Positions 1,200-44,207 of a DNA stretch of 64,000 nucleotides are shown here, piece after piece. A program made the translations under genes and the position numbers. Each line of letters opens with the position of its first letter. Within the stretch, counting starts at the first letter, position 1. Origin of the DNA: a virus (Duplodnaviria; Heunggongvirae; Uroviricota; Caudoviricetes); IMG/VR virus record IMGVR_UViG_3300035701_000015, positions 12,009 to 76,008 of that record. One strand, given 5' to 3'. The notes below the pieces were generated by a model. That model made no database searches. It was not told where the DNA came from and saw only the letters and a list, made by a program, of their open reading frames with translations.

Positions 1200-1294
1200 A
1201 ATGATAAATGGAATATTAGTTGGAGTAATGATGTCAATAATGCTAATAGGCTTTCTCTTAGCATATATTTCTGATAACAAGAAGAACTAACGAT

Positions 1295-1369
1295 GCGGGG
1301 TAGACTGGAGTCTGGTTACCAGCCCTGTCTCATAAGCAGGTCTACGTGGGTTCAAATCCCACCCCCGCT
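1295..1369 (+). tRNA. tRNA-Met/Ile2 (anticodon CAT)
   Basis: Acceptor gcggggt/ccccgc, anticodon arm cctgt-ctCATaa-gcagg, T-arm gtggg-ttcaaat-cccac. Confidence 0.55.
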
Positions 1370-1373
1370 AATA

Positions 1374-1441
1374 AGAGCTGAATTGTGGGGCTTATCGACA
1401 AATTGTAAATTGTAAAGGATGCCTCACGAAAATCTTGCTCT
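1374..1441 (+). ncRNA. structured stem-loop element, family member Y0
   Basis: Outer stem agagc/gctct, TGAA internal loop, inner stem gtgggg/cctcac, TTATCG motif, 3' CTTGCTCT. Lies between tRNA-Met and tRNA-Pro. Confidence 0.4.
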
Positions 1442-1447
1442 TTAATA

Positions 1448-1522: not shown

Positions 1523-1526
1523 AATA

Positions 1527-1593
1527 GAAGCTGAAGGAAAGTGGTTATCGTAAATGCAAATTACACAAACGCCATTTTCCGAACTCTTGCTTC
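1527..1593 (+). ncRNA. structured stem-loop element, family member Y1
   Basis: Outer stem gaagc/gcttc, TGAA, inner stem ggaaagtgg/ccattttcc, TTATCG, 3' CTTGCTTC. Homologous to the flanks of the element at 7598-7727. Confidence 0.45.
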
Positions 1594-1608
1594 TTTTTAG
1601 GAGACAAT

Positions 1609-3230: not shown

Positions 3231-3303
3231 GTCTCCGTAGCTCAATGGCAGAGCGGCTGCCTCTAAAGCAGTGTCAGTGAAGGTTCAAGTCCTTTCGGAG
3301 ACC
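3231..3303 (+). tRNA. putative amber-suppressor tRNA (anticodon CTA)
   Basis: Acceptor gtctccg/cggagac, D-arm gctc-aatggca-gagc, anticodon arm gctgc-ctCTAaa-gcagt, T-arm gaagg-ttcaagt-ccttt. Confidence 0.5.
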
Positions 3304-6147: not shown

Positions 6148-6219
6148 GGTCCCATCGACTAGTGGTCAGGTCAGCAGCCCTTCAAGCTGTAGACGCGGGT
6201 TCGACTCCCGCTGGGACTA
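6148..6219 (+). tRNA. tRNA-Glu-like (anticodon TTC), predicted C33
   Basis: Acceptor ggtccca/tgggact, anticodon arm gcagc-ccTTCaa-gctgt, T-arm gcggg-ttcgact-cccgc. Confidence 0.45.
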
Positions 6220-6222
6220 ATC

Positions 6223-6295
6223 GCGGTAGTAGCTCAAATGGTAGAGTGCAGTCCTTCCAAGTCTGAAGTTACGGGTTCGAGTCCCGTCTACCGCT
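6223..6295 (+). tRNA. tRNA-Gly (anticodon TCC)
   Basis: Acceptor gcggtag/ctaccgc, anticodon loop ctTCCaa, T-arm acggg-ttcgagt-cccgt. Confidence 0.5.
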
Positions 6296-6999: not shown

Positions 7000-7019
7000 T
7001 TAATTAATGGAGGTAATAT

Positions 7020-7172
7020 ATGTTTAAGATGGTAATTTGGGTTTTAATAATTGCTTTCTTGCTTTGCGCACTTTGTGTTTTTGTTGTGGGCCCCAAGAAA
7101 GTTGGGAACACAATTGAAAAGTACGGCGTGAAGAATACAATTGGAAGGCTCTGGAACGGATCACCTCAATAA
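7020..7172 (+). CDS. small membrane protein (50 aa), paralog
   Basis: One TM helix and a C-terminal ...KYGVKNTIGRLWNG tail similar to 7182..7367. Confidence 0.35.
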   Translation: MFKMVIWVLIIAFLLCALCVFVVGPKKVGNTIEKYGVKNTIGRLWNGSPQ

Positions 7173-7181
7173 GGAGTAAAT

Positions 7182-7367
7182 ATGGATTTTGACAAGACGT
7201 TCAAACGCACAATTAGGGCTGCTGTTATTATTTGGGTTCTTGTAGCATTTTTCACGGTTGCATTCATTTTTGGAGTAATTTTCTTTGCCGTCAAAGCAGT
7301 GAAGGCAGTCGAACAATATGGTCTGAAGAATACAATTGAAAGAGTTTGGGAAGGACCGAGTAAATGA
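7182..7367 (+). CDS. small membrane protein, paralog
   Basis: TM helix and VEQYGLKNTIERVWEG tail. Confidence 0.45.
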   Translation: MDFDKTFKRTIRAAVIIWVLVAFFTVAFIFGVIFFAVKAVKAVEQYGLKNTIERVWEGPSK

Positions 7368-7521
7368 AATGCACTTATTGTGGTAGACGGATTTGGTGGT
7401 TTCAAAATAGAGCACCCGATAGTAATGGATATATACATAGTACACCTTTCGGATGTAAATGGCATAAGTTCAATGATCGGATGTCGTTAAAGATAGAGGC
7501 TATTTTAGAGATAAAGAAATA

Positions 7522-7594
7522 GGGGCTGTAGCTCAATTGGGAGAGCGCCTGACCTGCAATCAGGAGGCAGGGAGTTCAAATCTCCTCAGCTCCA
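7522..7594 (+). tRNA. tRNA-Ala (anticodon TGC)
   Basis: Acceptor ggggctg/cagctcc, anticodon arm cctga-ccTGCaa-tcagg. Confidence 0.6.
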
Positions 7595-7597
7595 AAT

Positions 7598-7727
7598 GAA
7601 GCTGAACAGAAAGAGGTTATCGTACTAGGAACGAGAGGTCATTGGTTCGAATCCAATCCTCGGCAAATCATGCCGAGGTAGCCTAGTGGTTAGGGCGCTA
7701 AAACATCTTTTTCTAAAAACTTGCTTC
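7598..7727 (+). ncRNA. modular structured RNA (Y2) with permuted tRNA-like module
   Basis: Outer stem gaagc/gcttc, TGAA, inner stem agaaagagg/ctttttct. Apical module is T-arm attgg-ttcgaat-ccaat (7641-7657), acceptor hairpin cctcggc-aaatcat-gccgagg (7658-7678), then D-arm gcct-agtggtta-gggc (7681-7696). Confidence 0.4.
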
Positions 7728-7747
7728 TTAATTTTTGAGGTGATAAT

Positions 7748-8098
7748 ATGGGAAAGCTAAAGAGAGTAGAAGTTCGAGACATTTTAGAACAAGTAGTAGA
7801 CTTTGACAGTCTTACTCTAGAAGATGCTCGTAAGTTACTCGATAGTTTTTTAAGTAGATATGCTAGTATTTATCACAATATTTATTTTGAACAAAATTAT
7901 CAGCACGACATAAGCGATGAACTTCAGCTCATTGGCAACCGATTCGAGAACGACGAGGAATATGGAAGACGACTCGCTGATCAGAAGATGTTTCGAGACA
8001 ACAAGAAGAAAGAGAAAGAACAAAAGGAAGCTGAAGAATACAAAGAATATTTAAGACTCAGAGAAAAGTTTAATGGGTCGGTTAAGGGTAATTGGTGA
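7748..8098 (+). CDS. hypothetical protein
   Basis: The 3' end overlaps tRNA-Tyr by 24 nt. Confidence 0.5.
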   Translation: MGKLKRVEVRDILEQVVDFDSLTLEDARKLLDSFLSRYASIYHNIYFEQNYQHDISDELQLIGNRFENDEEYGRRLADQKMFRDNKKKEKEQKEAEEYKEYLRLREKFNGSVKGNW

Positions 8099-8163
8099 AC
8101 CCTCCAGTCTGTAAAACTGGCGCCTTTCGGCTAACACTGCAGGTTCGAGTCCTGCCCGGCCCA
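8075..8163 (+). tRNA. tRNA-Tyr (anticodon GTA), type II
   Basis: Acceptor gggtcgg/ccggccc, anticodon arm ccagt-ctGTAaa-actgg, 18-nt variable arm, T-arm gcagg-ttcgagt-cctgc. Confidence 0.55.
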
Positions 8164-8164
8164 A

Positions 8165-8461
8165 ATGGAAGAATATCCAATATGTCAAAGATGCGGCGTC
8201 TGTTGTGCATCTACTCTTTGTAGAGTAGGGAAAGATGGAGATAATGGCATCTGTTTTTTCTTAGAGAAAACTGAGAACAATATTTATTCTTGCTCTTTGT
8301 TAGCTTGGAGTAAAATCAAGGGAAGCGACATAAATATAAACAAAGGTTGCATCCTCAGGTCTAAGATCTTTATATTCGAGAATTACGAAAAATTAGCACT
8401 TCCTCGATTGGAGAAACGCTTTAGCTGTCAAAACTGGAAAGCTAACTTTGGCAAAAGCTAG
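8165..8461 (+). CDS. YkgJ-like CxxCxxCC zinc/iron-chelating domain protein
   Basis: CQRCGVCC motif. Confidence 0.45.
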   Translation: MEEYPICQRCGVCCASTLCRVGKDGDNGICFFLEKTENNIYSCSLLAWSKIKGSDININKGCILRSKIFIFENYEKLALPRLEKRFSCQNWKANFGKS

Positions 8462-8708
8462 AAAAGATATTGAAGAGCTTATAGAAGCCCCGGGACCTTA
8501 CGGACATAATATTGTAAGTCTTATTTTAAGAAGCATTGCAACAGAACTTGGCTATGATAAAGCTAATAAGATAGTTGAAGAGTTAGAGTTAGATAAAATC
8601 TTTTCGATTCCAAAATATTGGCCAGCTATTGATATGCTAAAAAACGGCATTAAAAATTCTCAAGTAGGATTTGAGGGACCTACTAAGAAAAAGTTTTCTA
8701 CTTTATAA
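8448..8708 (+). CDS. hypothetical protein
   Basis: ORF. Confidence 0.45.
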   Translation: MAKARKDIEELIEAPGPYGHNIVSLILRSIATELGYDKANKIVEELELDKIFSIPKYWPAIDMLKNGIKNSQVGFEGPTKKKFSTL

Positions 8709-8717
8709 GGAGAGAAC

Positions 8718-9014
8718 ATGCTCAAGCCAAATGAAGAAGATTTTTATACTCAGAAGTATTTCGAAGACATAAAATCGATGAATCAATCTTTGAGAAGCGA
8801 TCCAAAAAACATTCCTTTATTGTTTGAAGATCTCAAGCAATTGATGGTAGATCGTGGCTTTAAAGATCCCGAAGAAATAAAATCTTTGGCCATAACGATG
8901 TTGACTTTTCCATTTTCAGGGAAAGTGAAAATGACAGAAGCTGAAATAGAAGAAAACTATAATAAGCTTTTGCTCATTCTAGAAGACGGAATTCTTGAGA
9001 TTTGTGAGAACTAA
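8718..9014 (+). CDS. hypothetical protein
   Basis: ORF with AGGAGAG upstream. Confidence 0.5.
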   Translation: MLKPNEEDFYTQKYFEDIKSMNQSLRSDPKNIPLLFEDLKQLMVDRGFKDPEEIKSLAITMLTFPFSGKVKMTEAEIEENYNKLLLILEDGILEICEN

Positions 9015-9137
9015 TAAATCTCGTGAGTAAAGTAGAGATCGCCGAAGCGAGATCAGCAAGCTTTACTCACAGAGGAGCTGGAGAGGTCACAAGAGCAGAA
9101 GCTGTAATGGCTTCAGCAAGCTCAGGGGCCACGAATA

Positions 9138-9211
9138 GGGTCAGTAACGCAATGGTTTAGCGTACCAGACTTTTAATCTGGGAGTTGGAGGTTCGAATCC
9201 TCTCTGACCCA
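9138..9211 (+). tRNA. tRNA-Lys (anticodon TTT)
   Basis: Acceptor gggtcag/ctgaccc, anticodon arm ccaga-ctTTTaa-tctgg, T-arm ggagg-ttcgaat-cctct. Confidence 0.6.
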
Positions 9212-9214
9212 AAA

Positions 9215-9346
9215 GAAAGACTGACCGTGAAGGGGTTACCGACTGATAATCGAGAGGTCGTGAGTTCAAATCTCACTCAGTCTGAAAAGACTGATAGCTC
9301 AGGCTGGTAGAGCACTAAAATATCCTTTTGCAATTTCTTGTCTTTC
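9215..9346 (+). ncRNA. modular structured RNA (Y3) with degenerate tRNA-Ile-like module and duplicated 5' half
   Basis: Outer stem gaaagac/gtctttc, inner stem aagggg/cctttt. Degenerate tRNA-like at 9218-9284 (acceptor agactga/tcagtct, loop ctGATaa, T-arm gtgag-ttcaaat-ctcac). GAAA-capped acceptor hairpin, then a second agactga-ta-gctc-aggctggta-gagc 5' half (9288-9313). Confidence 0.4.
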
Positions 9347-9359
9347 TTTTTAAAAAACT

Positions 9360-9719
9360 ATGAACAAACAGATCACTCAAAATCTTTTAAAAGATCGAAC
9401 ATGTAATAATTGCGACCGCATGGAGGGTTACCGTCTCAGGCACGACCTCCCAATATGCTCTTTGAAAAAGAGAAGCAAGTATAAAACTTGTGAAGAATGG
9501 ACCGAAAGAGGTTATTTGTCATCCTCTATGTCGAGTAAAGAGTGGGTTGATATTATGTCAGTGAAAAAAGAAATAGTCTTTCCAATTAATCGCGCTGCTA
9601 CAATTCGAGGAGTACGAGTTTATATCACTGATACACGTGATCTCATTTATGAACAAAATTTTCCAGAATCTTATGTTGTTCCAACTGTGGGTGGTTCTAT
9701 AACTCTAAAGTTTACATAA
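9360..9719 (+). CDS. small Cys-motif family protein (LLKDRTCNNC)
   Basis: N-terminal QNLLKDRTCNNC motif shared with at least 9 other ORFs in this window. Confidence 0.5.
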   Translation: MNKQITQNLLKDRTCNNCDRMEGYRLRHDLPICSLKKRSKYKTCEEWTERGYLSSSMSSKEWVDIMSVKKEIVFPINRAATIRGVRVYITDTRDLIYEQNFPESYVVPTVGGSITLKFT

Positions 9720-9730
9720 GATAAAACTAA

Positions 9731-9850
9731 CAGCTGAAGTGATGAGTTTATCGGAAACTAGTTGTCTAGGTTCGACTCCTGGCTCCCATTTTTGGGATGT
9801 AGTGTAATGGTAGCACACCAGTCAAAACAACTTATTACGTTTACTTGCTG
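9731..9850 (+). ncRNA. modular structured RNA (Y4) with degenerate permuted tRNA-like module
   Basis: Outer stem cagc/gctg with TGAAG. T-arm-like tagg-ttcgact-cctgg, T-rich-capped acceptor-like hairpin, D-arm gtgt-aatggta-gcac (9802-9816), 3' CTTGCTG. Confidence 0.3.
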
Positions 9851-9927
9851 TTATTTATGAGTGGGATTATCAAAAAGAGTGAAGAGATAAGGTAGAAAAA
9901 TATGCGGAAATCCATTTAATTGATGAA

Positions 9928-10000
9928 GGGGCTGTAGCTCAACTGGGAGAGCATCACAATGGCATTGTGAGGGCAGAGAGTTCGACCCTCTCCAGCTCCA
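9928..10000 (+). tRNA. tRNA-Ala (anticodon GGC)
   Basis: Acceptor ggggctg/cagctcc, anticodon arm tcaca-atGGCat-tgtga, T-arm gagag-ttcgacc-ctctc. Confidence 0.55.
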
Positions 10001-10011
10001 AGGGCGACAAT

Positions 10012-10341
10012 ATGAAGTACGAAGTTGAGAAAACGTCTGAAAAAGAGAAAACGATAAAGCGTTTAAAAGACTGCTGGCACGAAATAATTACATCAAGAGG
10101 ATCAGATAAAGTAGCTAGATGTGAGCATTGTGATTATGGTAAATTTGAACTCAAATGGTATTGCCCTAAAAGCCCAGATCACATATGCCATTGGAAATCT
10201 ATGTTTGATTATCCAAGCGGTCTTAGATATGTATTTTCTATCAATGGCGAAAAGATATATTTGAAAGATAAAAGCTATAAGGGGAATTACGAATCACCAG
10301 ACTATTGTATATTTTGTGGTGAACCAGAAGAAAGAAAATGA
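10012..10341 (+). CDS. Cys/His-rich zinc-finger-like protein
   Basis: Start trimmed to the ATG after tRNA-Ala; CEHCDY...CPKSPDHICH...CIFCG. Confidence 0.5.
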   Translation: MKYEVEKTSEKEKTIKRLKDCWHEIITSRGSDKVARCEHCDYGKFELKWYCPKSPDHICHWKSMFDYPSGLRYVFSINGEKIYLKDKSYKGNYESPDYCIFCGEPEERK

Positions 10342-10640
10342 TTTGGGAATTAAACACAAACTATTATTATTTTATTTTTTATAACGCTGAAAAAGAATTT
10401 GGTTTAGCAAAAGTCGAAGTAATTGGGCGTCCGTTGTCGACGTATTTCCCTTTACTGAAAATATTAAAAATTTATACTCCAGACGTATGGTTAGGACATA
10501 AAGACAGAATCGCAGAAAATGGAACTGTAACTGCTAACGAATTCCAGGGAGTAGGAGCTTCAGGGCCAGACGGTTTCTTTTTCACTGAAAAAAGTCTAAT
10601 TGAAGCTATATTCGAGAAAGATAATTACAAATCAGATTAG
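10338..10640 (+). CDS. hypothetical protein
   Basis: ATGA overlap with the upstream gene. Confidence 0.45.
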   Translation: MIWELNTNYYYFIFYNAEKEFGLAKVEVIGRPLSTYFPLLKILKIYTPDVWLGHKDRIAENGTVTANEFQGVGASGPDGFFFTEKSLIEAIFEKDNYKSD

Positions 10641-16490: not shown

Positions 16491-17582
16491 ATGAAGAAGA
16501 TACTTGGATTGATTTCTGTGGTGATTCTTTTGTTTGGATTGGTTGGATGTGGGGGCATCAGCATCGATTTTCTGAAAAACACTGGTGGAGATGAAACGTT
16601 AGTGACCGTTCCGATTTTCAGCCTCAACGATTTTTCTTCAGTAAAATCTTTTGCAACAAAGTCTATCGATGTAAGCGGCACATCGAGCGAAATCGATAGA
16701 AAAGCTTTCGCTTTTTACACAACGATGTTCCAAGGGTTCATAGAAGTTCCTAAATCAAACATCGTTGACGATAAGTATAAAGCTGATGTAGTCAATATGC
16801 CGCAGATTCAAGTGAATGTCTCCGGGTCGAAATTTACTATCGATTCACCCGAAAACAAGATCTACCTGGAAGTCAACATAGATGGAGACACCTTCACGGT
16901 ATTTGAAAAATCGGCTTTCGCCTATAATATACCCGCAGGTTGCGGTATAATTTATCGCGAAGCCCATATAAATGGTACTTTCACCAACAGGATGAAAACG
17001 AACTTCACAGCGACGGGTAATTTAAAATATTATTGTTATAGCCCGTCTGGGGCAGAAGACGGCCATCTCTACTGGAGTGGAAATCTTCATGCTTCGTGGT
17101 TCGAGATTTTCAAGAACAGTCAGATTATAGGGTTATTCGTAACTAAGGGTTATGTAGACGAATATGAAACTTATCGGTTAGATTTCCCTATGCTTTTCTA
17201 TGACGACACGACAGCAGTGGCTGCATCTTGGCAAGAGGCTGAAGATTACTTCTATTTGAACTTAGAGACTTCTCAAATACCAACAGAGTCTCTGAGCATT
17301 GTAGGTCTGGTCAATCGTTTCGATCACATATCTCTGGACCCGATTGATAAAGGAACGGTCGTTTATGGTTCTAGGATCACCAGAAGTTATACCCTGTTTG
17401 CTTTCGAACTCTGGAAAGATTTTCTTTTCAATATGAGCGGAGTTCCAGCAGAAAAGAACGGGTACTTCAGCGAGGTTCTTGAGGGCCAAGGAACCGGTTC
17501 TTACCAAAACTTGTTTGGTTTAAATTTATCGGAAGCTGTTAACAGTCTCTCCGATAAGGGTTGGGTCATCGATCTTTATTAA
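16491..17582 (+). CDS. lipoprotein, hypothetical
   Basis: Signal peptide plus lipobox LVGCGG. Confidence 0.55.
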   Translation: MKKILGLISVVILLFGLVGCGGISIDFLKNTGGDETLVTVPIFSLNDFSSVKSFATKSIDVSGTSSEIDRKAFAFYTTMFQGFIEVPKSNIVDDKYKADVVNMPQIQVNVSGSKFTIDSPENKIYLEVNIDGDTFTVFEKSAFAYNIPAGCGIIYREAHINGTFTNRMKTNFTATGNLKYYCYSPSGAEDGHLYWSGNLHASWFEIFKNSQIIGLFVTKGYVDEYETYRLDFPMLFYDDTTAVAASWQEAEDYFYLNLETSQIPTESLSIVGLVNRFDHISLDPIDKGTVVYGSRITRSYTLFAFELWKDFLFNMSGVPAEKNGYFSEVLEGQGTGSYQNLFGLNLSEAVNSLSDKGWVIDLY

Positions 17583-25497: not shown

Positions 25498-25821
25498 ATG
25501 AAGTTTAGAAAAGCCACTAACGACGAAGCAACAGGCACTCACCAAACGGGTATATTGCACACAGACTATCATAAAATAGTTAGTGTATTTGGTGAGCCCG
25601 AAGAAAGTAATTCAGATAAAATTCAAGTGGAATGGATTTTAAAATTTGAAGATAGAACTATAGCTACTGTATATGATTATAGAGCAATAAGAATTCCTGA
25701 AAAAAATAAAGATTGGTACATCGGCGGAAAAAACAAAAAATCTGTATATTATGTACTTGCTCTTGTTTTAAAACATTATAGAGCTTTAATAAAAGATGTA
25801 TTTGAGGCTAATTTAAAGTAA
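25498..25821 (+). CDS. hypothetical protein
   Basis: ORF. Confidence 0.45.
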   Translation: MKFRKATNDEATGTHQTGILHTDYHKIVSVFGEPEESNSDKIQVEWILKFEDRTIATVYDYRAIRIPEKNKDWYIGGKNKKSVYYVLALVLKHYRALIKDVFEANLK

Positions 25822-26884
25822 ATTTCTCACCTTTGTAATTCACGAAATTATTGTCACCTAAATAATAATCTGGAGAGATAGATATTTTTCCACCCCCATG
25901 TGGCAAATCCACAATATATTGCGGAACAGCCAAACCAGAAGTAAATCCTCTCAATCCTTTTACGATGTTAACTCCATCTTCGACTGTAGTTCTAAAGTGC
26001 TTAGAACCTACAATGTTGTCGCAATGATAGATATAATAAGGTCGAACTCTAATCTTGAGTAGTTTCTGCATTAGTGATTTCATAGTCGCTACGTCGTCGT
26101 TAACGCCCTTTAGCAGCACTGTTTGGCTACCAAGCGGTATTCCAGCATCGGCTAATTTATTGCAAGCTTCTGTCGTCTCCTCAGTGATTTCATCGGGATG
26201 GGTGAAATGAATGTTCACATAAAGTGGATGATACTTTTTAAGCATAGCGACAAGCTCATCTGTTATTCTCATAGGTAGTACAACTGGAACTTTCGTCCCT
26301 ATTCTTATGACCTCTACATGCGGAATGCTTCTGATCTCTTTGATCAAGATCTCAAGCATCTCATCTGACATAGTAAGAGGATCACCACCAGAAATAATAA
26401 CGTCTCTTATTTCAGTATGTTCCCGAATATAATCTATTGACTTTTCCCATTCGTCTCTTTCTTCTCCACCAACTATTCTTGAGCGAGTACAGTAACGACA
26501 GTTAGCAGCACAGAAAGTTGTAGACAAGAATAAAACTCTATCAGGATAACGATGCACTATGCCACGAGTTGGGCTTTGTTTTTCTTCATCTAAAGGATCT
26601 TCGTCCTCATCGGGTGACTTTATTAATTCGTGAATTGTTGGCACCATAGTCTTTCTTATTGCTGAGCTCTTCTTAACGATTTCTGCAAAGTATGGTGTCA
26701 ATCTAAAAGGCAAATCTATTTGCTCGAAAGCTTTGACTTCATCATCTGTCAAGTCAATAATAGAGCGCAACTGTTCGAGAGTCGTGATTGAATTTTTGAT
26801 TTGCCATTTCCAGCTTTTACTTGGAGGCTTGTCTTCACACGGTGGGGGTTTATCGTCTTCGGGTTTACTAATGTTAGTGTCCAT
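25808..26884 (-). CDS. KamA-family radical SAM protein (lysine 2,3-aminomutase-like)
   Basis: CAANCRYCTRS (CxxxCxxC) cluster, GGDPL, and overall KamA/EpmB-like architecture. Confidence 0.7.
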   Translation of the reverse strand: MDTNISKPEDDKPPPCEDKPPSKSWKWQIKNSITTLEQLRSIIDLTDDEVKAFEQIDLPFRLTPYFAEIVKKSSAIRKTMVPTIHELIKSPDEDEDPLDEEKQSPTRGIVHRYPDRVLFLSTTFCAANCRYCTRSRIVGGEERDEWEKSIDYIREHTEIRDVIISGGDPLTMSDEMLEILIKEIRSIPHVEVIRIGTKVPVVLPMRITDELVAMLKKYHPLYVNIHFTHPDEITEETTEACNKLADAGIPLGSQTVLLKGVNDDVATMKSLMQKLLKIRVRPYYIYHCDNIVGSKHFRTTVEDGVNIVKGLRGFTSGLAVPQYIVDLPHGGGKISISPDYYLGDNNFVNYKGEKFTLN

Positions 26885-28197: not shown

Positions 28198-28369
28198 AAT
28201 TATCCTCCTGAATGTTTTATAGATTTATGCGCATAAATGATATAAAGATTTTTTCAAAAAATTTTGAATTTTCTATAAAATTCGCATAGTTATCCACAAA
28301 GATAAATAAGAATAAGTTCTGAAGCCGTTTAGAATTTTACACAACTACATACATAGATTAAAAAAGATT

Positions 28370-28444
28370 GAGCTGCTAGTAAGGGGTTACCGTTATGATT
28401 CAGCCGTAGGCTGAAAACCAACGCCCTTTGCTGATCACTTGCTC
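28370..28444 (+). ncRNA. structured stem-loop element, family member Y5
   Basis: Outer stem gagc/gctc, inner stem aagggg/cccttt, GGGGTTACCG identical to Y3, 3' CACTTGCTCTTCTT. A T-arm-like hairpin follows at 28464-28486. Confidence 0.4.
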
Positions 28445-29044
28445 TTCTTATTAATAGGAATAGACGGGAGTTTCGATTTCCGTTTATTATATCATCTAAT
28501 TCCTTTTTAAAGGAGGTGGATCTCTCAGTAAGATACACTATGAAAGGAAATGGGATAGAGTGATCTATCCAGCTTGACGTTAATGATGTTTAAGTCGAGC
28601 TGACTTAGGGTGATTACCGTAACTACAAATTGTTCGTACATTGCTAATGCAATGTATTGGTTTTTTCTACTGCGGTAGAAAAATAGCAAATCGGGCAGCG
28701 TCCGATTTACCAAAACGCTCGTCAAGTTCATCCTAAACTTTTTTGCTCGCAATTTTTTGTTGTTCTTTGACACATTCGAAATCGGTCGGTCCTATATCTA
28801 CTGATACATAAGTAACCGAAAGTAGGCCTTTCGGGATGAGACTGAAAGGCTGAACTAACCAAAGTAAATTGGGATGATAAAAGAATGAAAATTAATGAGA
28901 TATGTTAGAAGGCGAAAAAGTGACGGTAGACGAAAATATTATAGACTATTATGATGCTTAACTTATTAGTTAAGCAGCAGGACAGGGTTATCCTGACTGA
29001 GATTTATGATAAACAATTCTCTCCCTCTCAGTAAAAACTCTCTT

Positions 29045-29069
29045 GGTCGCAGACTGGTCGCAGACTGGT
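29045..29069 (+). repeat. tandem 11-bp repeat
   Basis: ggtcgcagact occurs 2.3 times in tandem. Confidence 0.6.
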
Positions 29070-29098: not shown

Positions 29099-29163
29099 CG
29101 AGAGTAAAATCTGATTCTTCTCTTACTCTCGGCAGCTCTTTTAACTTTGAAAAAAGAGAGCTG
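29099..29163 (+). other. two adjacent long hairpins
   Basis: cgagagtaa...ttactctcg (9 bp) and cagctctttt...aaaagagagctg (10-12 bp). Confidence 0.5.
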
Positions 29164-29301
29164 AAGTGAAAGCGGTTACCGGTGAAAATTTTTGTCTAAT
29201 AAACAGAAACCAGCTGGATTCGATTGCCAGCAAACTAGAGCAATCTAGTAAAACTCGTTTTCCAATTACTTGCTCTTTATTATTGCATATATAAAACAAA
29301 T

Positions 29302-29361
29302 TAGCTGAATGTTGGTGGTTATCGCCTTGTAATCGAACACCCATCAACTAACAACTTGCTA
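29302..29361 (+). ncRNA. structured stem-loop element, family member Y6
   Basis: Outer stem tagc/gcta, TGAA, inner stem gttggtgg/ccatcaac, GGTGGTTATCG, 3' CAACTTGCTA. Confidence 0.4.
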
Positions 29362-29391
29362 ATCTTATTTTATCGCATACTTAAAAACGAT

Positions 29392-29480
29392 CAGCTGAAT
29401 GATTGGTGGTTATCGTTACCATTCACACGACGATCCCTGACATAGTTGGGGACGTAATCCCCATCGATCAACACTTGCTG
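29392..29480 (+). ncRNA. structured stem-loop element, family member Y7
   Basis: Outer stem cagc/gctg, TGAA, inner stem gattggtgg/ccatcgatc, apical hairpin gggga-cgtaa-tcccc, 3' CACTTGCTG. Confidence 0.4.
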
Positions 29481-29703
29481 ATTTTATATTCGTGCAACAG
29501 AAATAATTTCAGATAGTCCAGTTAGAATATTAAAGCTAATTTCTTAGAAAGAAAGGCCTTTGCTCGTATTTCGAGCTGAAAAAGAATTTAGTTTTCCGCT
29601 CAAATCTCAAGTTTTTTAATAGAATTTGATTTTAATCATTTAATTAGATTTCGTTGAACGAAACATACTAATTTGTCGCGCAGCGACTGAAGGAGGCAAC
29701 ATT

Positions 29704-31326
29704 ATGGCTCAGAAGAAATCACCGTATGGATTCACATCAACAAGAAACAAGCCGACTCCGCAGAGCAAGCCGATTCCAGGGAGAGAAGCAGAGATGAAAG
29801 AGAATCTCGCAGGAGGCTATGGATTCAACGCTTCTGATTGGACTGCACTGCGAAGATGGCTGCTCACCGGTAGCATGTTCGATGCATACTACCAGGGCAA
29901 AGAGCAGATGACCGAGGACAACGTGAAAGTCCTCAAAGCAGTGATGAATCAGGATGCTCCGAAGACGGCTCAGGAAATCCAAGATGCTTCAAAGAAGGGC
30001 GTTTCTGTTCACACTCCGATTTACGCTCTAAGCGTTCTCTCAACTGGGAACAAAGAAGCGAAAGCCGCTTTCCGAGAACTGTTTCCATTGGTCATTCGAA
30101 ATGGAAGTCATCTGTACGAGTTCCTTAATTATACTCGTGGCTTGAGGGGCTTCGGTTCACTCATCCACAAAGCAGTTAAGGACTGGTTTTACAGCAAAGA
30201 TGCAAAGGAGCTTGAGTATCAGTTCTTGAAATACCAGAGCAGGTACGACTGGAGCGGCCGAGATGTTCTGAGAACCATCAAGCCGATACCGAAAGACGAG
30301 AACGTAAAGGCAATCTTCAACTGGATTGCTGGTGGTTCTACGAAGAACCCGCTGCTCACTGAATGGCCAGAAGCGCTCCAGAGAATTCGGGCATACGAAT
30401 TCCTCAAGAGTGGAAAGGCTGCAGAGAGTGATGTCATCGACGCAATCAACAAGTATAAGATGACTTGGGAGATGATGCCGGGTAACTTGACTCAAACTCC
30501 GAAAACGTGGGAAGCTCTCTTTCACAACATGCCGGTAGGAGCAACCATCAGAAACCTCGGCAACTTGACTGACAAGGGTGTCTTCAAAGACCACAAAAAC
30601 TTGGAGATTCTCGAAGCGAGGTTCAGCAAGGAAAACTTGGCGAAAGCCTACATCCATCCGATTGTATTCGCTTCAGCAATGAAGATTTATCAAGCTGATG
30701 GAACTCTGGGAAAGAGCCAACTCCGATGGACTTCGGTTGCTCGAGTATCTGACGCCATGGAAGACGGAATCGAAAAGTGCTTCGATGTTCTTGAGCCGAC
30801 TGGCAAAGACTTCTTCTATGCACTCGACGTTTCTAGCTCAATGACAGGCGGAAACGTTGGAACAATGTGGCTGACCCCGATGGAAGTAGAGGGCGTAATG
30901 GCTCTTGCATCTGTACGATCAGAGAAGAACTATTTCGTTGGTGGGTTCAACACTAACTTCCAACCGATCAGCAATTTCACCAAGAAGATGAGCTACAAGA
31001 CTGCTCTGAACTTCTGGCACGGAGGCTTCGGCGGAACTGACGCTGACTCTGCCTACAGGTACGCAATCAGCAATCAGGTTCGAACGGATGTTTTCGTATT
31101 CATGACCGATGGCGAAAGTTGGGCTGGTGCTCGGCATCCAGCACAAGGTTTCAAAGCTTACAAGGGTAAGATTAACAAAAACGCGAAAGCGATCTATATT
31201 ACCCTTACGGCTACTGGAGACCACATTACTCTAGCTGACCCCACTGATCCTCAGTCTTATGACATCGCTGGTTTCTCGAGCGACACTCCGAAAATTATAA
31301 ATCTTATAGTTCGCGGAGATCTTTAA
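29704..31326 (+). CDS. rsr: Ro60-like TROVE-domain protein with C-terminal vWA domain (Rsr ortholog)
   Basis: 540 aa; helical N-terminal ~350 aa with a TROVE-like pattern; C-terminal vWA with MIDAS motif DVSSSM and TDGES. Confidence 0.65.
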   Translation: MAQKKSPYGFTSTRNKPTPQSKPIPGREAEMKENLAGGYGFNASDWTALRRWLLTGSMFDAYYQGKEQMTEDNVKVLKAVMNQDAPKTAQEIQDASKKGVSVHTPIYALSVLSTGNKEAKAAFRELFPLVIRNGSHLYEFLNYTRGLRGFGSLIHKAVKDWFYSKDAKELEYQFLKYQSRYDWSGRDVLRTIKPIPKDENVKAIFNWIAGGSTKNPLLTEWPEALQRIRAYEFLKSGKAAESDVIDAINKYKMTWEMMPGNLTQTPKTWEALFHNMPVGATIRNLGNLTDKGVFKDHKNLEILEARFSKENLAKAYIHPIVFASAMKIYQADGTLGKSQLRWTSVARVSDAMEDGIEKCFDVLEPTGKDFFYALDVSSSMTGGNVGTMWLTPMEVEGVMALASVRSEKNYFVGGFNTNFQPISNFTKKMSYKTALNFWHGGFGGTDADSAYRYAISNQVRTDVFVFMTDGESWAGARHPAQGFKAYKGKINKNAKAIYITLTATGDHITLADPTDPQSYDIAGFSSDTPKIINLIVRGDL

Positions 31327-31335
31327 TACAATCAA

Positions 31336-31365
31336 GGGCTAGATGAAAGTCTAGCCCTTTTGTTT
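31336..31365 (+). terminator. rho-independent terminator
   Basis: gggctagatgaaagtctagccc followed by TTTTGTTT. Confidence 0.65.
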
Positions 31366-31390
31366 GTACATCTAAATAAGAGGTGATAAT

Positions 31391-39555: not shown

Positions 39556-39694
39556 AGTCTGGCTTAAGTTTTTCTTATTCGCCGACTTAAATAGCTCACG
39601 ATAGCACCTTAGTTTTCACTAATTAACAAGGTATTTACCTCAATAAAAACAAAGATAATATCAAAGGCCTAAATTGGCATTGAGGAGATATAAA

Positions 39695-42100
39695 ATGAGT
39701 TGGAAAAATTTGATAGGCTCTATTAAGGAAGAAGTTAATCAAGACTCTCCTATAATTAAAAAGAGCAAAAAACAAGGAATACCTTTATTCGAAAAATTAG
39801 CCAGAGAGCTAGTTGATGACAGGATAGATGAAATAGATATTAAAGGTGCTGTAAAGAAAGTTGGAGTAGTTATAAAAACTGGATGGCAAAAGCTGACGGG
39901 CAAAATTAAAGAAGTTGCTATGAGAGGTTTTAAATTCGGAGTTGCCGTTGGTAAGACAGTAGCGAATAAATTTGTATTATTCAACAAAGCTGGAGAAATA
40001 TTGACTCCTCCTGCAGACAATGCGCAAATAAAGCCTATAGCTTCTGGTAAGAAAACATTGACGCTTACTTATAAAAGTAAAGCTGGTCCAATGGATATTC
40101 ACATGGGCGATCTTCTCAAGATGGGCTTTGGTACTCAGATAGACAAAAACGGTATTGGCATCTTCTATGTTGTTGAGCCTAAAGTTGCTGGAGTACAAGA
40201 GGGAATAGACTATAAGGCATCTGAAATTCTTTTAGAAGATAGAGAAAAAGAAAAAGAAGAACTTGCCGCTATGTCTGAAATAGATAAATTAGTATTTGGC
40301 TCATTTTCTGGTGAAGGAGCTCAAGCTTTAAAATCTTCTTCAGAAATGCCAACTAAAGCTGCACCAGTAGCAGTTAATTATGATGACTTTCAAAAAGAAT
40401 TAAACGATCTTCTGAAGAGAGTAAAAGAGGGAATAGTTCTTAAAAATAGTAAAATAAAAACTCTTGCAATTTATGCACCTACTGGGTGGGGAAAATCAGA
40501 AATCATAGAGCATACGGCAAAAGCTGCTGGATACCATTATTTTCCAATAGAGCTTCAGAAAGTTGATATAAACATTATTCAGGGCTTTCCATATCTAGAA
40601 GATGTTGAAGCCGCTGATGACGCAACGAAAGAAGATAGATTACGAAGAGCGATCAAAATAGTAAAGATTGCTCCATCTGAACACTTACCACCATCTGAGC
40701 ATCCGGGAAACTGGTTACTATTCTTTGACGAGTTCAATAGAGCAGACACCGAAAAGATGTCGGCAGTTATGAACTTATTACTAACTGGTGAGCTTGGTGG
40801 TGCTGCTAATTTAGTTCGAGATAAAAAGACTGGTGAAAAGAAACTTGATAGATATAGATTACCAGAAAAAACGGTAGTACTTCTGGCAATGAATACTGGA
40901 ATGCAGAAAAACATTTCAGATGCAATGAACGCAGTAAAAGACTTAGACATTGCAACTCTTGAAAGAGTTCACAGAGTACTCCAAGGAAAATATCATGGAC
41001 CAAGCTGGTTCAAGAATTTTGCAGCAAAATCTTTTATAGCGGAAACGAAAGCGGGTCACAAAGTACCCATACTATCAAGAATTCCTCCAATTATATTACA
41101 CTATATCAATCAAGAGATGAGAACTAAAACGGGCATTGATCCTGAGAAACCTTTCTTAATTCCAGTAAAAGTAGCATACGATGAGAAAGGCGAATCTCTT
41201 GGAGGCGGCGGTGAAAGAACGACTTCCCCAAGAGCTTGGACAATTATAGCAGACACTATGATTGAACAAGGTATCGATCAATGGAACTCATTAAGTGATG
41301 AGTCTAAAAAGAAATATATGAAAGACGCTGAAAAAATTAAGAAACAAATAGAAGAGAAGGGTATTACTGATAAAGAAGGAAATAAAGTAAAACTTCCAGA
41401 AAAAGTTGAAGATTATCTATTTGCCGCTTGGGTCAATGATGCTAGAAATCAAGTGAAGCTTCTGGCAAATCAATCACCAGAGCTCGGTGACGAGGGAATG
41501 GAACTTATAGGTAAAATGATAAGATCTTTCATGAGGAAAGGGAGAGAAGGTATCAGCGATGAAGATGTTCTATTAAACTACAAAGCTATTAGAGAGCAAG
41601 TCAAGAACAATTTTACAAATCTTGGGTTTGGAACTAAAGCAAATTTACTTGCCAGATTATTTATGGCTCTATCTAAATTCAAAAATGAAAAGCAAGTTAC
41701 AGATTATATGGAAGACAAGAGTATTCCTCTTCTTTCTAAGCAAGGATTAATTGAACAGTTATTTCAAACTATCAAGGCTCTATACAAAGACTTAGATTTT
41801 GCTCCAGATGAGTTTGCTTCATTCACACACTTAGTGGAAGAAGCCGCTAAGAAGGGCGACAATGAGCTACTTAGATCATTGCACCAGAAGATGGCTGGCA
41901 AATGGGAAGTCTATTTAGACAACATAAGAAAGAAGTTGCAGACTAAGAGTCAAGTAGAAAAAGAGCTTGAAAAAATAGCAGGCGGTAAAGGTAAGGCTGG
42001 CGAGAAAGGTGAAGAAGGTGAAGAAGGCGAGAAAGGTGAAGAAGGTGAAGAAAAGAAAAACGAAGATATTAGAAACTTTTTGAGAGGCTTGAAACTCTAA
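39695..42100 (+). CDS. MoxR-like AAA+ ATPase (AAA_5) with long C-terminal extension
   Basis: Walker A APTGWGKSE, Walker B/sensor LLFFDEFNRAD, LLLTGELGG; C-terminal GE[KE]GEEGEE repeats. Start trimmed to the ATG after GAGGAG. Confidence 0.6.
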   Translation: MSWKNLIGSIKEEVNQDSPIIKKSKKQGIPLFEKLARELVDDRIDEIDIKGAVKKVGVVIKTGWQKLTGKIKEVAMRGFKFGVAVGKTVANKFVLFNKAGEILTPPADNAQIKPIASGKKTLTLTYKSKAGPMDIHMGDLLKMGFGTQIDKNGIGIFYVVEPKVAGVQEGIDYKASEILLEDREKEKEELAAMSEIDKLVFGSFSGEGAQALKSSSEMPTKAAPVAVNYDDFQKELNDLLKRVKEGIVLKNSKIKTLAIYAPTGWGKSEIIEHTAKAAGYHYFPIELQKVDINIIQGFPYLEDVEAADDATKEDRLRRAIKIVKIAPSEHLPPSEHPGNWLLFFDEFNRADTEKMSAVMNLLLTGELGGAANLVRDKKTGEKKLDRYRLPEKTVVLLAMNTGMQKNISDAMNAVKDLDIATLERVHRVLQGKYHGPSWFKNFAAKSFIAETKAGHKVPILSRIPPIILHYINQEMRTKTGIDPEKPFLIPVKVAYDEKGESLGGGGERTTSPRAWTIIADTMIEQGIDQWNSLSDESKKKYMKDAEKIKKQIEEKGITDKEGNKVKLPEKVEDYLFAAWVNDARNQVKLLANQSPELGDEGMELIGKMIRSFMRKGREGISDEDVLLNYKAIREQVKNNFTNLGFGTKANLLARLFMALSKFKNEKQVTDYMEDKSIPLLSKQGLIEQLFQTIKALYKDLDFAPDEFASFTHLVEEAAKKGDNELLRSLHQKMAGKWEVYLDNIRKKLQTKSQVEKELEKIAGGKGKAGEKGEEGEEGEKGEEGEEKKNEDIRNFLRGLKL

Positions 42101-42930
42101 TGAAAAATTTGTTCCAAGTAATATTAGAAGCACAACAAAGCGATCAACCTACACAAGCTGAGTTAGAGCAATATAGAGAGAAGTTGCAAGCTAGTAAGAC
42201 TAGTATACCAAGATCGATTGCAGCAATTAAACCGCATCTTTTTAATACAGGAGAATATGAACTCTATGAGTTCATAGAAAACTGTGAGTTTTGGAAAGTT
42301 CAAAATAAAAATGGTCCAGGCTGGCATGCAACTGCTGGCGTTAGAGTGGGATCGAATAAAATAGAATTTTATTATGATGAAGAGTTTCTAGATAAATTGG
42401 CAAAGAAGCCGGGTCAATTAATATTCTTGATAGGACATGAAGCTTCTCATATTCTGAGATTCCACATAGACAGATCAGTCGCTGCAAATCAAGAAGCAAG
42501 CTTAGCGAATGTAGCACAAGATATGATTATTAATGACGATATATTATTGACTGACAAAGTAGCTGGTTGGAAGCCAGAAATGATAACTAAATCTACTGTT
42601 ATGGAATTAGCTAAGGGTGAGAAAGACGGAGCTTTTGCTCATTCAATTCCAGATAAATTCAGACAAGATTTTAAAGAAGTTGGACGAAAAGCTTATTATT
42701 CAGAAAATATGTACAACTGGCTAAATGCTAATCCAAAAGAAAAAGAAAAAGTGACGGGTCCTGGAGCTCCACAAGAAGTAGATTATTTTGAAAAAGGTTC
42801 ATTAGTAAAAGTAAATAGCGGCCCGCATAAGGGCGAATATAGAAGAATAACTGAAGTCAATAAAGATGGAACTTACGAAACTGAGCCAGTTGATATACAA
42901 GCTGAAATAGAAAAGGTTAAGGGCAAATGA
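42100..42930 (+). CDS. putative zinc metallopeptidase domain protein (HExxH)
   Basis: GHEASHILRFH. Confidence 0.5.
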   Translation: MKNLFQVILEAQQSDQPTQAELEQYREKLQASKTSIPRSIAAIKPHLFNTGEYELYEFIENCEFWKVQNKNGPGWHATAGVRVGSNKIEFYYDEEFLDKLAKKPGQLIFLIGHEASHILRFHIDRSVAANQEASLANVAQDMIINDDILLTDKVAGWKPEMITKSTVMELAKGEKDGAFAHSIPDKFRQDFKEVGRKAYYSENMYNWLNANPKEKEKVTGPGAPQEVDYFEKGSLVKVNSGPHKGEYRRITEVNKDGTYETEPVDIQAEIEKVKGK

Positions 42931-44207
42931 ATATAAAATCTTTATTAGAAACTCTTGAAAATAGAGTTTTATTAGAACAAAAGGAAACGTTCAAACAAGG
43001 CGAACTTACTCCAGTAATCATCAATCCTCCAACTGGTACCCCGTCGCCACTACCACCACAGCAAGGTGGAAAACAAATAGACGTAGAAGTAATAGATACG
43101 GGTAAGCCACCTCCTAGTAAAGGAGCAGGGGCAAGTAAGCCTGGTGAAACTAGCGGTAAAGAAACTAAGAAAACAGATAAGCCTGGTGAAGGCGAAAAAA
43201 AAGCCGCTGCTTCACCAACAATAGATTCTCACGAAATTTTTAATAAATCAGATCCATCTGAAGCTAAAGAGATGGCAGAAAAGATCCTTGAGAAAGCTGA
43301 GGCAGAAAGAAAAGAAAGAGGTGAAGATTTAGAGAAATCTGCTGGAGAAGGTGCTGGCAATTTTATGGATAAGCTCAGAGATATTCACAAACCAAGAATA
43401 AATTGGTCAGTTGAGTTAAAGAGAAAGCTCACGGAATTCAAATCTAGAACATCTACAGCTATAAATAGATACTCTAAAAAGAAAGCAGAGAAATACAAAG
43501 AAGGCGAAGGAGTAGTAAAATCAAAAGCCTATCATCAATGGTTGAGAGATCCAAGGTCTCATGGTGGTAGCAAAATACTCTTCAAAGGACCTTATGTAAA
43601 AGCTCCGATAGGTGAAGTCATATTGATAGTTGCTCTAGATACTTCTGGATCTATTCCAGAAAGTACGATTGGTAAAGTATTTGCTGAAATGGATAAAATA
43701 GCAACGAATTTCAAAAGAGGACTTACCCATGGCGGAGTAAGCATGGAAGGCAAAGTCTACTTCATGACTTGGGACTCAGCAGTAGCTTCTGTTGATGAAT
43801 ATAAGCCTGGAGAATGGAGAAAATATAAAGAGGGCACGAAGAAAATCAAAGGTGGCGGAGGAACAGACCCAAGTAGTATATTCGATTATTTAAAGAAGCA
43901 TACTTTATTCGATAGGGAGAAACCAACTGCGGCTTTGCTTAATATACTGAAAGAACCAGCTCCAACGGGAATGAGTAAGCACGATATAGTAATTCCCGTT
44001 AAAGGCGGTTCTGAGAGTCCTTCAGCTGTTATGTCTCCTTTCTTGTTAATAGCTACAGACGGTTTCTTCTTTGGGAAAGTAAATGATGCAGATTTAGGTT
44101 TGTTATACAAAGATAATGAAAAGAACATACTCTATTTAGTTATAGATGGGCAGACACAAGATTGTTATCCTAAAAACGTAATAGTGTATGAATCAGTAAG
44201 AGCATAA
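42927..44207 (+). CDS. vWA domain protein
   Basis: MIDAS VALDTSGSI; acidic/low-complexity N-terminal region. Confidence 0.55.
   Translation: MNIKSLLETLENRVLLEQKETFKQGELTPVIINPPTGTPSPLPPQQGGKQIDVEVIDTGKPPPSKGAGASKPGETSGKETKKTDKPGEGEKKAAASPTIDSHEIFNKSDPSEAKEMAEKILEKAEAERKERGEDLEKSAGEGAGNFMDKLRDIHKPRINWSVELKRKLTEFKSRTSTAINRYSKKKAEKYKEGEGVVKSKAYHQWLRDPRSHGGSKILFKGPYVKAPIGEVILIVALDTSGSIPESTIGKVFAEMDKIATNFKRGLTHGGVSMEGKVYFMTWDSAVASVDEYKPGEWRKYKEGTKKIKGGGGTDPSSIFDYLKKHTLFDREKPTAALLNILKEPAPTGMSKHDIVIPVKGGSESPSAVMSPFLLIATDGFFFGKVNDADLGLLYKDNEKNILYLVIDGQTQDCYPKNVIVYESVRA

Follow-up and report, generated by a model that had tools for sequence, protein, structure and literature searches.

Probable YrlA-class Y RNA genes with tRNA-like domains in the tRNA array of a large phage that encodes a Ro60 orthologue

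Introduction

Conservation of Ro60 and its Y RNAs extends from bacteria to humans, and human Ro60 is a lupus and Sjögren autoantigen. Here, we examine a 64,000-nucleotide stretch of phage DNA (Caudoviricetes; IMG/VR record IMGVR_UViG_3300035701_000015, positions 12,009 to 76,008), hereafter the window, which encodes a Ro60 orthologue and a set of candidate Y RNA genes (Y1 to Y10). Three of these candidates (Y3, Y4 and Y5) carry a T-arm, a loop-capped acceptor stem and a D-arm, in that order. In circularly permuted tRNA genes, as in Cyanidioschyzon merolae, and in two-piece tmRNA, a short linker likewise joins an upstream T-arm and acceptor 3' strand to a downstream acceptor 5' strand and D-arm.

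The closest described RNAs are the bacterial Y RNAs of the YrlA class. These run from a closing stem through V, a T arm, a loop-capped acceptor-like stem (AS) and a D arm back to the closing stem (Chen et al. 2014, PMC4201824), and they have been reported in 22 bacteriophages (PMC4201824). They have a 5' motif, GNCGAAN0-1G, at or near the basal internal loop, where it is the proposed Ro60 contact, and a YUAY at the start of the V loop. Their D- and T-stem sequences are near-invariant, and each gene shares its strand with a Ro60 orthologue no more than about 4 kb away (PMC4201824). A bacterial YrlA gains CCA following RNase P cleavage (PMC4201824). Tandem tRNAs have been flagged as a source of false YrlA positives, and such matches were discarded (Chen et al. 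2014, PMC4201824). Among phages, Thermus phage phiLo makes a Ro60 that binds phage Y-RNA-like RNAs and assembles with host PNPase (PMC12135203).

Results

We find it likely that Y3, Y4 and Y5 are YrlA-class Y RNA genes of a large, tRNA-rich phage that encodes its own Ro60. In each, a T-arm is followed by a loop-capped acceptor stem, UA and a D-arm (7641 to 7696, 9260 to 9313 and 9766 to 9816, all on the plus strand), and a long two-part stem encloses the whole (Table 1). The Rfam YrlA model (RF02553) aligns end to end, from model position 1 to 114, with scores of 42.9 bits for Y4, 29.8 bits for Y3 and 17.2 bits for Y5. Over the whole window, the E-values are 3.6e-6 for Y4 and 0.022 for Y3. Y5 is weak when taken alone (E = 3.7 in a 2.4-kb search), and we accept it as a family member because it shares the basal module described below. 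No non-tRNA Rfam family fits Y3, Y4 or Y5 better.

The published arm order (V, T, AS, D) is found in all three elements, as is YUAY ahead of the V arm (UUAU in Y3 and Y5, UUAC in Y4). All of them also have the tRNA elbow nucleotides U8, A14, G18G19 and U54-U55-C56 and the G53:C61 pair, and the Levitt pair 15:48 covaries, being G15:C48 in Y3 and Y4 and A15:U48 in Y5. A strict descriptor (T-arm, 7-bp capped acceptor, 2 nucleotides, and a 4-bp D-arm with GG) was also run over the window, on both strands, and over about 0.4 Mb of unrelated loci. It matched Y3 and Y4 only, so the arm pattern exceeds chance; Y5 is missed solely because of a bulged U in its acceptor stem.

Minimum free energy (MFE) folds of the full elements give a two-part basal helix of 15 to 21 bp for Y3, Y4 and Y5. 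The closing stem, AS hairpin and D arm appear in the MFE folds of Y3 and Y4, and the T-arm appears in that of Y4 as well. A competing helix displaces the T-arm in Y3, and an alternative hairpin competes with it in Y5. The first-pass annotation of this DNA had described the arm order, the long closing stem and the perfect acceptor complementarity of two copies (CCTCGGC/GCCGAGG in Y3 and TCAGTCT/AGACTGA in Y4), and on each of these points our analysis agrees with it. Its span for the second copy, 9218 to 9313, contains the module at 9260 to 9313, but, starting at 9218, it includes the 5' strand of the basal stem and the V hairpin too. Its suggestion of a bacterial Y-RNA (YrlA) domain is supported by the end-to-end YrlA alignment, the same-strand Ro60 gene, YUAY, the Levitt covariation and a basal stem with an internal loop as published for YrlA; the Ro60 gene itself and seven sibling elements had escaped it.

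Several observations weigh against a YrlA assignment. All three scores lie under the Rfam YrlA gathering score of 69 bits, and the z-scores of the whole-element folds are only -1.4 to -1.9. Strict GNCGAA is absent, with GCUGAAC in Y3, GCUGAAG in Y5 and GACUGAC in Y4 (a C to U change at the third position). The D and T stems are not the near-invariant YrlA sequences: the T stems read AUUGG, GUGAG and CUAGG against a consensus of GCGGG, and only the D-arm of Y4 (GCUC...GAGC) equals the consensus. Y3 to Y5 sit 19.9 to 22.1 kb upstream of the Ro60 start at 29704, on the same strand and beyond the distance of about 4 kb reported for YrlAs. Y5, with its bulged acceptor and truncated variable region, could be decaying. 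Last, the closest IMG/VR relative, whose Ro60 is 67% identical to the window protein, has no positional orthologues of Y3 to Y5 in about 58 kb of contig, of which about 40 kb was scanned with Rfam and about 18 kb (L006/L007 and L028 in our locus numbering) with the tRNA-module descriptor and a basal-module regular expression only. No YrlA-like element follows tRNA-Lys(UUU) in this relative, where gene order is not fully collinear with the window; it does carry family members elsewhere.

Two of these points can be set against phage sequences. Tonenili is a Mycobacterium phage of the genus Bixzunavirus, where phage YrlAs were first described. The Tonenili YrlA, 190 nucleotides upstream of the Tonenili Ro60, scores just 31.4 bits with the Rfam model; a sub-threshold score is therefore normal for phage YrlAs, and the threshold excludes accepted phage members. 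We read GCUGAA as a C-to-U variant of the published GNCGAA motif, because the scaffold (UUAUCG hinge and CUUGCU 3' strand) is otherwise the same in viral contigs with GCCGAA and in those with GCUGAA. GCUGAA occurs in L048, L050/L066 and L072, and the canonical GCCGAA in L033, L049, L055 and L090.

The three tRNA-like elements belong to a larger family. The 5' flanks of Y3, Y4 and Y5 have AGCUGAA...GGUUAYCG in common, and their 3' flanks CUAAAAY...ACUUGCU. A basal module, consisting of stem1, a UGAA loop, stem2, UUAYCG and then a loop ending in CUU, is present in at least 10 window elements, all on the plus strand: Y3 to Y5 and seven that have no tRNA-like domain. With three further elements from relatives, there are 13 aligned members in all. 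The internal loop is asymmetric (5' UGAMN; 3' 6 to 9 nucleotides ending in CUU), and stem2, which is 8 to 10 bp long, is canonical throughout, with a conserved G.U wobble four pairs below the hinge. A descriptor combining a regular expression with stem pairing found eight plus-strand matches, versus 0.45 expected from shuffles.

Covariation in this family is extensive. With a register anchored solely on the conserved UGA and CUU motifs, and no fitting, 64 of the 65 stem1 pairs in the 13 elements are canonical, and two columns show four Watson-Crick pair types; UUAYCG is invariant in 13 of 13. Among 11 window and IMG/VR sequences, all 55 T-stem pairs are canonical, and the acceptor-like stems are complementary with five to seven pair types per column. 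RNAalifold counted four to five double changes per column in stem1 and the T stem. Whole-element MAFFT alignments were too poor for column-wise pair counts, and motif-anchored manual registers were used instead; on one alignment (A6), RNAalifold recovered stem1 and the T-arm only.

Apical modules differ from member to member: tRNA-like in Y3 to Y5, a T-arm-like hairpin plus a GCAA hairpin in Y8, three hairpins in Y7, and a minimal apex in Y1, Y2 and Y9. A covariance model of the basal module (R1) finds the short members and misses those with apical inserts of 70 to 105 nucleotides; Y1 was absent from its training set. The basal module corresponds to the Ro60-binding stem of YrlA, and a constant dock beneath a variable apex is what Y RNAs display.

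Some smaller observations concern the family. In A6, RNAalifold pairs [C/U]GA of the 5' loop (columns 7 to 9) with YCG of the hinge (columns 25 to 27; for example, 7603 to 7605 with 7620 to 7622). Such a pairing would form a pseudoknot with stem2, and in the GCUGAA variant it would persist as a G.U wobble. A possible divergent further member lies at 28975 to 29045 on the plus strand (AGCAGCAGGACAGGGUUAUCC...CUCUUGG), where the descriptor finds no match. The D-arm of Y5 is near-identical to that of the element in L062. In Tonenili (L031 4838 to 4925), a second short Y-RNA-like element, GGACGGAG-GCCGAAGG-...GUCGGUUAUC...CUCCGUCC, lies between YrlA and Ro60; it is unannotated in the record, and its layout is the same as that of the short elements in the window.

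Table 1. Y RNA candidates, their parts and associated genes in the window.
Feature	Position	Strand	Description
Y1	1373-1442	+	Short Y-RNA-like: basal module and small apical hairpin, no tRNA-like domain; covariance model R1 27.7 bits, E 1.8e-4
Y2	1526-1594	+	Short Y-RNA-like; directly 3' of tRNA-Pro(CGG) 1448-1522
Y3	7598-7727	+	YrlA-like Y RNA
Y3 stem1	7598-7602 / 7723-7727		GAAGC / GCUUC; 5' loop UGAAC; 3' loop AAAAACUU
Y3 stem2	7608-7617 / 7705-7714		Hinge UUAUCG 7617-7622; V hairpin; AGGUC before T-arm
Y3 T-arm	7641-7657		ATTGG/TTCGAAT/CCAAT
Y3 acceptor	7658-7664 / 7672-7678		3' strand CCTCGGC; loop AAATCAT; 5' strand GCCGAGG; then TA
Y3 D-arm	7681-7696		GCCT/AGTGGTTA/GGGC; then CUAAAAC
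Y4	9213-9348	+	YrlA-like Y RNA
Y4 stem1	9213-9221 / 9340-9348		Up to 9 bp, core AAGAC/GUCUU; 5' loop UGACC; stem2
Y4 hinge and V			UUACCG; V hairpin with loop CUGAUAA; AGGUC before T-arm
Y4 T-arm	9260-9276		GTGAG/TTCAAAT/CTCAC
Y4 acceptor	9277-9294		UCAGUCU-GAAA-AGACUGA (AGACTGA strand 9288-9294); then UA
Y4 D-arm	9297-9313		GCTC/AGGCTGGTA/GAGC; then CUAAAAU
Y5	9728-9853	+	YrlA-like Y RNA, most degenerate of the three
Y5 stems, hinge and V			Stem1 (UA)ACAGC/GCUGU(UA); loop UGAA; stem2; UUAUCG; short V region without AGGUC
Y5 T-arm	9766-9782		CTAGG/TTCGACT/CCTGG
Y5 acceptor	9783-9799		CUCCCA-UUUU-UGGGA(U)G; 5-6 bp only, one bulged U; then UA
Y5 D-arm	9802-9816		GTGT/AATGGTA/GCAC
Y6	28364-28449	+	Y-RNA-like, 5' loop UGCU replacing UGAA; first of cluster upstream of Ro60; 20.2 bits
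Y7	28596-28749	+	Y-RNA-like, 105-nt three-hairpin apical module
Y8	29155-29278	+	Y-RNA-like; T-arm-like hairpin GCUGG-AUUCGAUUG-CCAGC and GCAA-capped hairpin, no D-arm
Y9	29300-29363	+	Short Y-RNA-like, minimal apex; 49.8 bits
Y10	29389-29483	+	Y-RNA-like, 220 nt upstream of Ro60 start codon
Ro60/Rsr orthologue	29704-31326	+	540 aa, TROVE ring and vWA domain; Pfam vWA_Ro60 7e-31, TROVE 4e-20
Terminator-like hairpin	31334-31369	+	Intrinsic-terminator-like hairpin and T run right behind Ro60 stop codon
CCA-adding enzyme	61139-62452	+	Phage-encoded

The Ro60 open reading frame (ORF) matches, near full length, the Protein Data Bank entries 1yvp (Xenopus laevis Ro60, 7e-56) and 2nvo (Deinococcus radiodurans Rsr, 3e-51), and falls in phrog_850. 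Its product is the presumed protein partner of Y1 to Y10. Y6 to Y10 fill the ORF-free 1.5 kb directly upstream of this gene, 0.2 to 1.3 kb from its start, and the terminator-like hairpin behind it may end a transcription unit comprising Y6 to Y10 and Ro60. Phage Ro60 homologues are common (356 phage records), often within tRNA arrays.

Relatives repeat this arrangement. The Ro60 proteins of three IMG/VR contigs share 67% identity with the window protein. Searched with a covariance model trained on window sequences alone, these contigs show four to five basal modules within 750 nucleotides upstream of Ro60 and one more 2 kb upstream. In one relative, a member containing a T-arm directly follows tRNA-Leu(UAA). 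An orthologue of Y7 with a covarying stem1 lies at about 8150 to 8310 of L001, and an orthologue of Y8 lies at 9257 to 9375 of the same locus. Both Y8 and this orthologue have one hairpin with a T-loop-like loop (AUUCGAU(U)G) and another capped by GCAA, and the stems of both hairpins are fully compensated (GCUGG/CCAGC to GUGGG/CCCAC; CUAGA/UCUAG to CCCUA/UAGGG). The pair has the look of a conserved Y RNA that is "half tRNA-like" and lacks the D-arm.

A pattern scan of viral contigs returned 70 loci against about 80 estimated by chance, and about a dozen of these are full YrlA-like RNAs. Ro60 lies within 0.1 to 0.8 kb of the elements in L066, L055 and L043. The elements in L072, L062, L090 and L076 begin right behind a same-strand tRNA. 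With model R1, further short siblings were found in YrlA-bearing contigs only, and none in about 40 unrelated loci. A megablast of 7000 to 10500 against the phage collection had no match, ORF 9360 to 9719 had no homologue in viral contigs or in a 5.8-billion-protein database, no homologue was retrieved with ORF 16491 to 17582 as anchor, and the sole match to ORF 7748 to 8098 was a 4.3-kb Logan contig with the same sequence as the window.

Most of the array-borne copies lie close behind tRNA genes. The window holds 32 tRNA genes, all on the plus strand, between 471 and 37157 with small ORFs between them; neither ARAGORN nor the Rfam families detected a tmRNA in the window. Four of the five array-borne copies (Y1 to Y4) begin 2 to 5 nucleotides past the discriminator base of a CCA-less tRNA gene. 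Y3 starts 4 nucleotides past tRNA-Ala(UGC) (7522 to 7594), Y4 starts 2 nucleotides past tRNA-Lys(UUU) (9138 to 9211), and Y1 is directly 3' of an atypical tRNA at 1294 to 1370. On the other side, the end of Y3 is 20 nucleotides from an ATG at 7748, and the end of Y4 is 11 nucleotides from an ATG at 9360. The phage CCA-adding enzyme is relevant here because the window tRNA genes have no encoded CCA and because a bacterial YrlA gains CCA after RNase P cleavage.

This layout could also be explained if the elements were cis-acting punctuation or stability elements of tRNA-mRNA transcripts, which recruit RNase P or RNase Z, or shield mRNA 5' ends, without acting in trans as Ro60 ligands. Y1 to Y4 lie between a tRNA and the next ORF, and the tRNA-adjacent site recurs in other contigs. 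Promoter scans were at chance level, and no convincing independent promoters or terminators flank Y1 to Y4. We nevertheless consider a purely cis-acting role improbable. The identical basal module recurs in an ORF-free tandem array just upstream of Ro60, both here and in relatives, and it matches the Ro60-binding stem of YrlA, with GCCGAA and GCUGAA interchangeable on one scaffold. Note that the two roles are not exclusive, as the processing of tRNA transcripts is part of the Y RNA explanation too.

It is less likely still that the elements are functionless, either as decaying tandem tRNA duplicates or as tRNA pseudogenes of a fast-evolving array. The Rfam YrlA model does match, with its inner part (positions 23 to 86), the tandem tRNA-Glu(UUC)/tRNA-Gly(UCC) junction at 6187 to 6252 on the plus strand, at 23.8 bits. 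This junction serves as a built-in false positive: only the inner model aligns, and the acceptor strands are non-complementary. Y5 appears degenerate, and Y4 holds AGACUGA twice, with 5' two-thirds that barely reach the Rfam tRNA threshold (30.4 versus 29 bits). A genuine tRNA-Ile-like gene at Y4 was rejected, as ARAGORN is silent there and an enforced cloverleaf, at -27.4 kcal/mol, is about 14 kcal/mol worse than the YrlA-type fold at -41.5 kcal/mol.

The first-pass annotation had argued that decay would not preserve acceptor complementarity three times. Its conclusion stands, but the reasoning is weak, since a fresh tandem duplicate of one tRNA gives complementary acceptor strands by construction. 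Decay is instead set aside because the basal module is shared with seven elements that are not tRNA-like and because the modules have no special similarity to the array tRNAs, being no nearer to any of the 32 than unrelated tRNAs are to one another. The same lack of similarity led us to reject a recent capture of neighboring tRNAs. Further, the acceptor strands are capped directly by loops of 4 to 7 nucleotides, and the elbow nucleotides and Levitt-pair covariation are kept in all three elements. The shared basal module is not of tRNA type (conserved UGAA, UUAYCG, CUAAAA and CUU, with covarying stems), and homologues in other phages have the same architecture with other acceptor sequences.

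Circularly permuted tRNA genes, which the first-pass annotation had offered as its other reading, are not supported here. Under that explanation, the transcript would be circularized or joined in trans and cut at the acceptor loop to yield an aminoacylatable tRNA, as in C. merolae. In its favor, the T-arm and acceptor 3' strand (the 3' part) do come ahead of the acceptor 5' strand and D-arm (the 5' part), a 7-nucleotide loop resembling an anticodon loop (CUGAUAA) tops the V hairpin of Y4, and ARAGORN with its intron option sees acceptor, D and T arms in de-permuted sequences. However, ARAGORN is silent on de-permuted Y3 to Y5 unless 22 to 53 nucleotides are called an intron, and the anticodons are then inconsistent and their positions aberrant. 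The closing stem enters the Y-RNA basal module, so that stem2, internal loop and stem1, with their conserved Y-RNA motifs, occupy the place of an anticodon arm. There is no anticodon loop and no bulge-helix-bulge junction, seven elements without tRNA arms have the same basal module, and the part of the window ORFs that was scanned showed neither a splicing endonuclease nor an RtcB-type ligase. We give this explanation hardly any credence.

Equally hard to credit is the idea that the fold is incidental and the elements are copies of a small mobile or repetitive DNA element, homing-associated or akin to a miniature inverted-repeat transposable element. In its favor, all ten copies share a strand and have conserved motifs at their ends. 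However, they diverge nearly everywhere except in single-stranded motifs while their helices covary, which points to selection on RNA structure rather than recent transposition. Beyond the stem itself, we saw neither target-site duplications nor terminal inverted repeats, and the association with Ro60 and tRNAs is strand-specific.

Other features of the window were recorded in passing. ARAGORN labels the tRNA at 1294 to 1370 (plus strand) Gly(GCC) and puts its anticodon at position 29, and its Rfam score is just 33 bits; by eye, it has an anticodon loop CUCAUAA (CAU, Met/Ile2-like) and an enlarged D region. A tRNA with a CUA anticodon (amber suppressor; 3231 to 3303, plus strand; ARAGORN label "tRNA-Pyl"; Rfam tRNA 60.8 bits) suggests TAG read-through or stop-codon recoding in the phage. 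Inside the tRNA region, on the opposite strand, lies a lysine-2,3-aminomutase-like radical SAM gene (25808 to 26884, minus strand). Its homologue in a related contig (L007 1977 to 3002) is at a different position, and gene order has therefore been rearranged between relatives.

A paralogous cluster at 39674 to 48860 (plus strand) combines AAA/MoxR-like ATPases (39674 to 42100 and 46343 to 47479) with DUF2201 VWA-like/metallopeptidase genes (42100 to 42930, 42927 to 44207 and 47472 to 48860); Ro60 has a vWA domain too. The DNA polymerase III alpha gene is split, with its order inverted (52756 to 55005 and 57221 to 58648, plus strand). The C-terminal part (NTPase end, finger, HhH and OB; 52756 to 55005) lies upstream of the N-terminal part (PHP and NTPase start), which ends in weak intein/HINT matches, and a split-intein trans-splicing arrangement is possible.

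Discussion

Phage Ro60 and phage Y RNAs, including tRNA-like YrlAs, are already published (PMC4201824; PMC12135203). In the published accounts consulted, four features provisionally appear unreported: a repertoire of at least 10 members, the location of three independent tRNA mimics 20 kb away from Ro60, repeated fusion of such elements to tRNA genes on their 3' side, and the GCUGAA variant. The window offers a natural experiment: one Ro60 gene and ten candidate RNAs with a constant docking stem and a varied apex, three of them independent tRNA mimics. It bears on the role of the YrlA tRNA-like domain and on why phages carry Ro60.

How such RNAs might act can be sketched from the systems in which Y RNAs have been studied. 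By analogy with D. radiodurans, Salmonella, Mycobacterium smegmatis and phiLo, the basal stem, which in Y3 to Y5 stands where a tRNA has its anticodon stem, would dock on the outer face of the phage Ro60 ring. The apical module could then be recognized by tRNA-binding factors (TruB, Dus, RNase P or the CCA-adding enzyme), could tether Ro60 to an effector such as host PNPase, or could do both. The seven siblings, with the same dock and other apices, would suggest an adaptor repertoire. The gene layout also points to a shared transcript in which the 5' ends of the Y RNAs are probably cut by 3' processing of the upstream tRNA (RNase Z-type), because Y1 to Y4 start 2 to 5 nucleotides past the discriminator of CCA-less tRNAs. 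Through such an assembly, Ro60 and its Y RNAs would adapt RNA surveillance or decay to the needs of the phage.

We tentatively extend this sketch to a modular repertoire, a proposal that we think unlikely. At least 10 Y RNAs would share one Ro60 dock and differ in their adaptors. Several would be made as tRNA-Y RNA dicistrons cut by tRNA 3'-processing, and the tRNA mimics would steer Ro60 and a recruited host exonuclease to tRNAs. If so, the assembly could survey the phage's pool of 32 tRNAs, or its RNAs could serve as decoys or traps for host defense nucleases that target tRNAs. Ro60 and Y RNA in large phages would then amount to a programmable, tRNA-centered ribonucleoprotein for counter-defense or quality control.

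For annotation, the published criteria (less than 4 kb from Ro60, tandem-tRNA matches discarded and the Rfam gathering score) miss phage Y RNAs in tRNA arrays. Large uncultivated phages repeatedly show Y RNA genes linked to tRNA genes. Should these RNAs prove to bind Ro60 and to undergo tRNA-coupled processing, both the annotation of phage tRNA arrays and models of phage RNA surveillance would need updating.

Set beside known systems, Y3 to Y5 share part of their arm order with permuted tRNA and two-piece tmRNA genes, but their termini rebuild neither an anticodon arm nor a tag reading frame. The short members have counterparts in Salmonella YrlB and in phiLo Yrl1 and Yrl2, which, like Y6 to Y10, are short, have a Ro60-binding stem and internal loop but no tRNA-like domain, and lie just upstream of Ro60; Y1 and Y2 also resemble this short form. 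phiLo differs in having two Y RNA genes, against at least seven candidates here, and a CGAA motif. The nearest match to Y3 to Y5 is YrlA, with which they share the asymmetric internal loop of the basal stem, YUAY, V, T, capped acceptor and D arm, and the return strand. The Tonenili YrlA further shares with the window elements the hinge GGUUAYC and the sequence after the D-arm (CUUAAAC/CUAAAAC). Unlike the YrlAs described so far, Y3 to Y5 lie inside a tRNA array, where most are fused to a tRNA gene on its 3' side, and a single genome combines three tRNA-like paralogues with seven siblings that are not tRNA-like.

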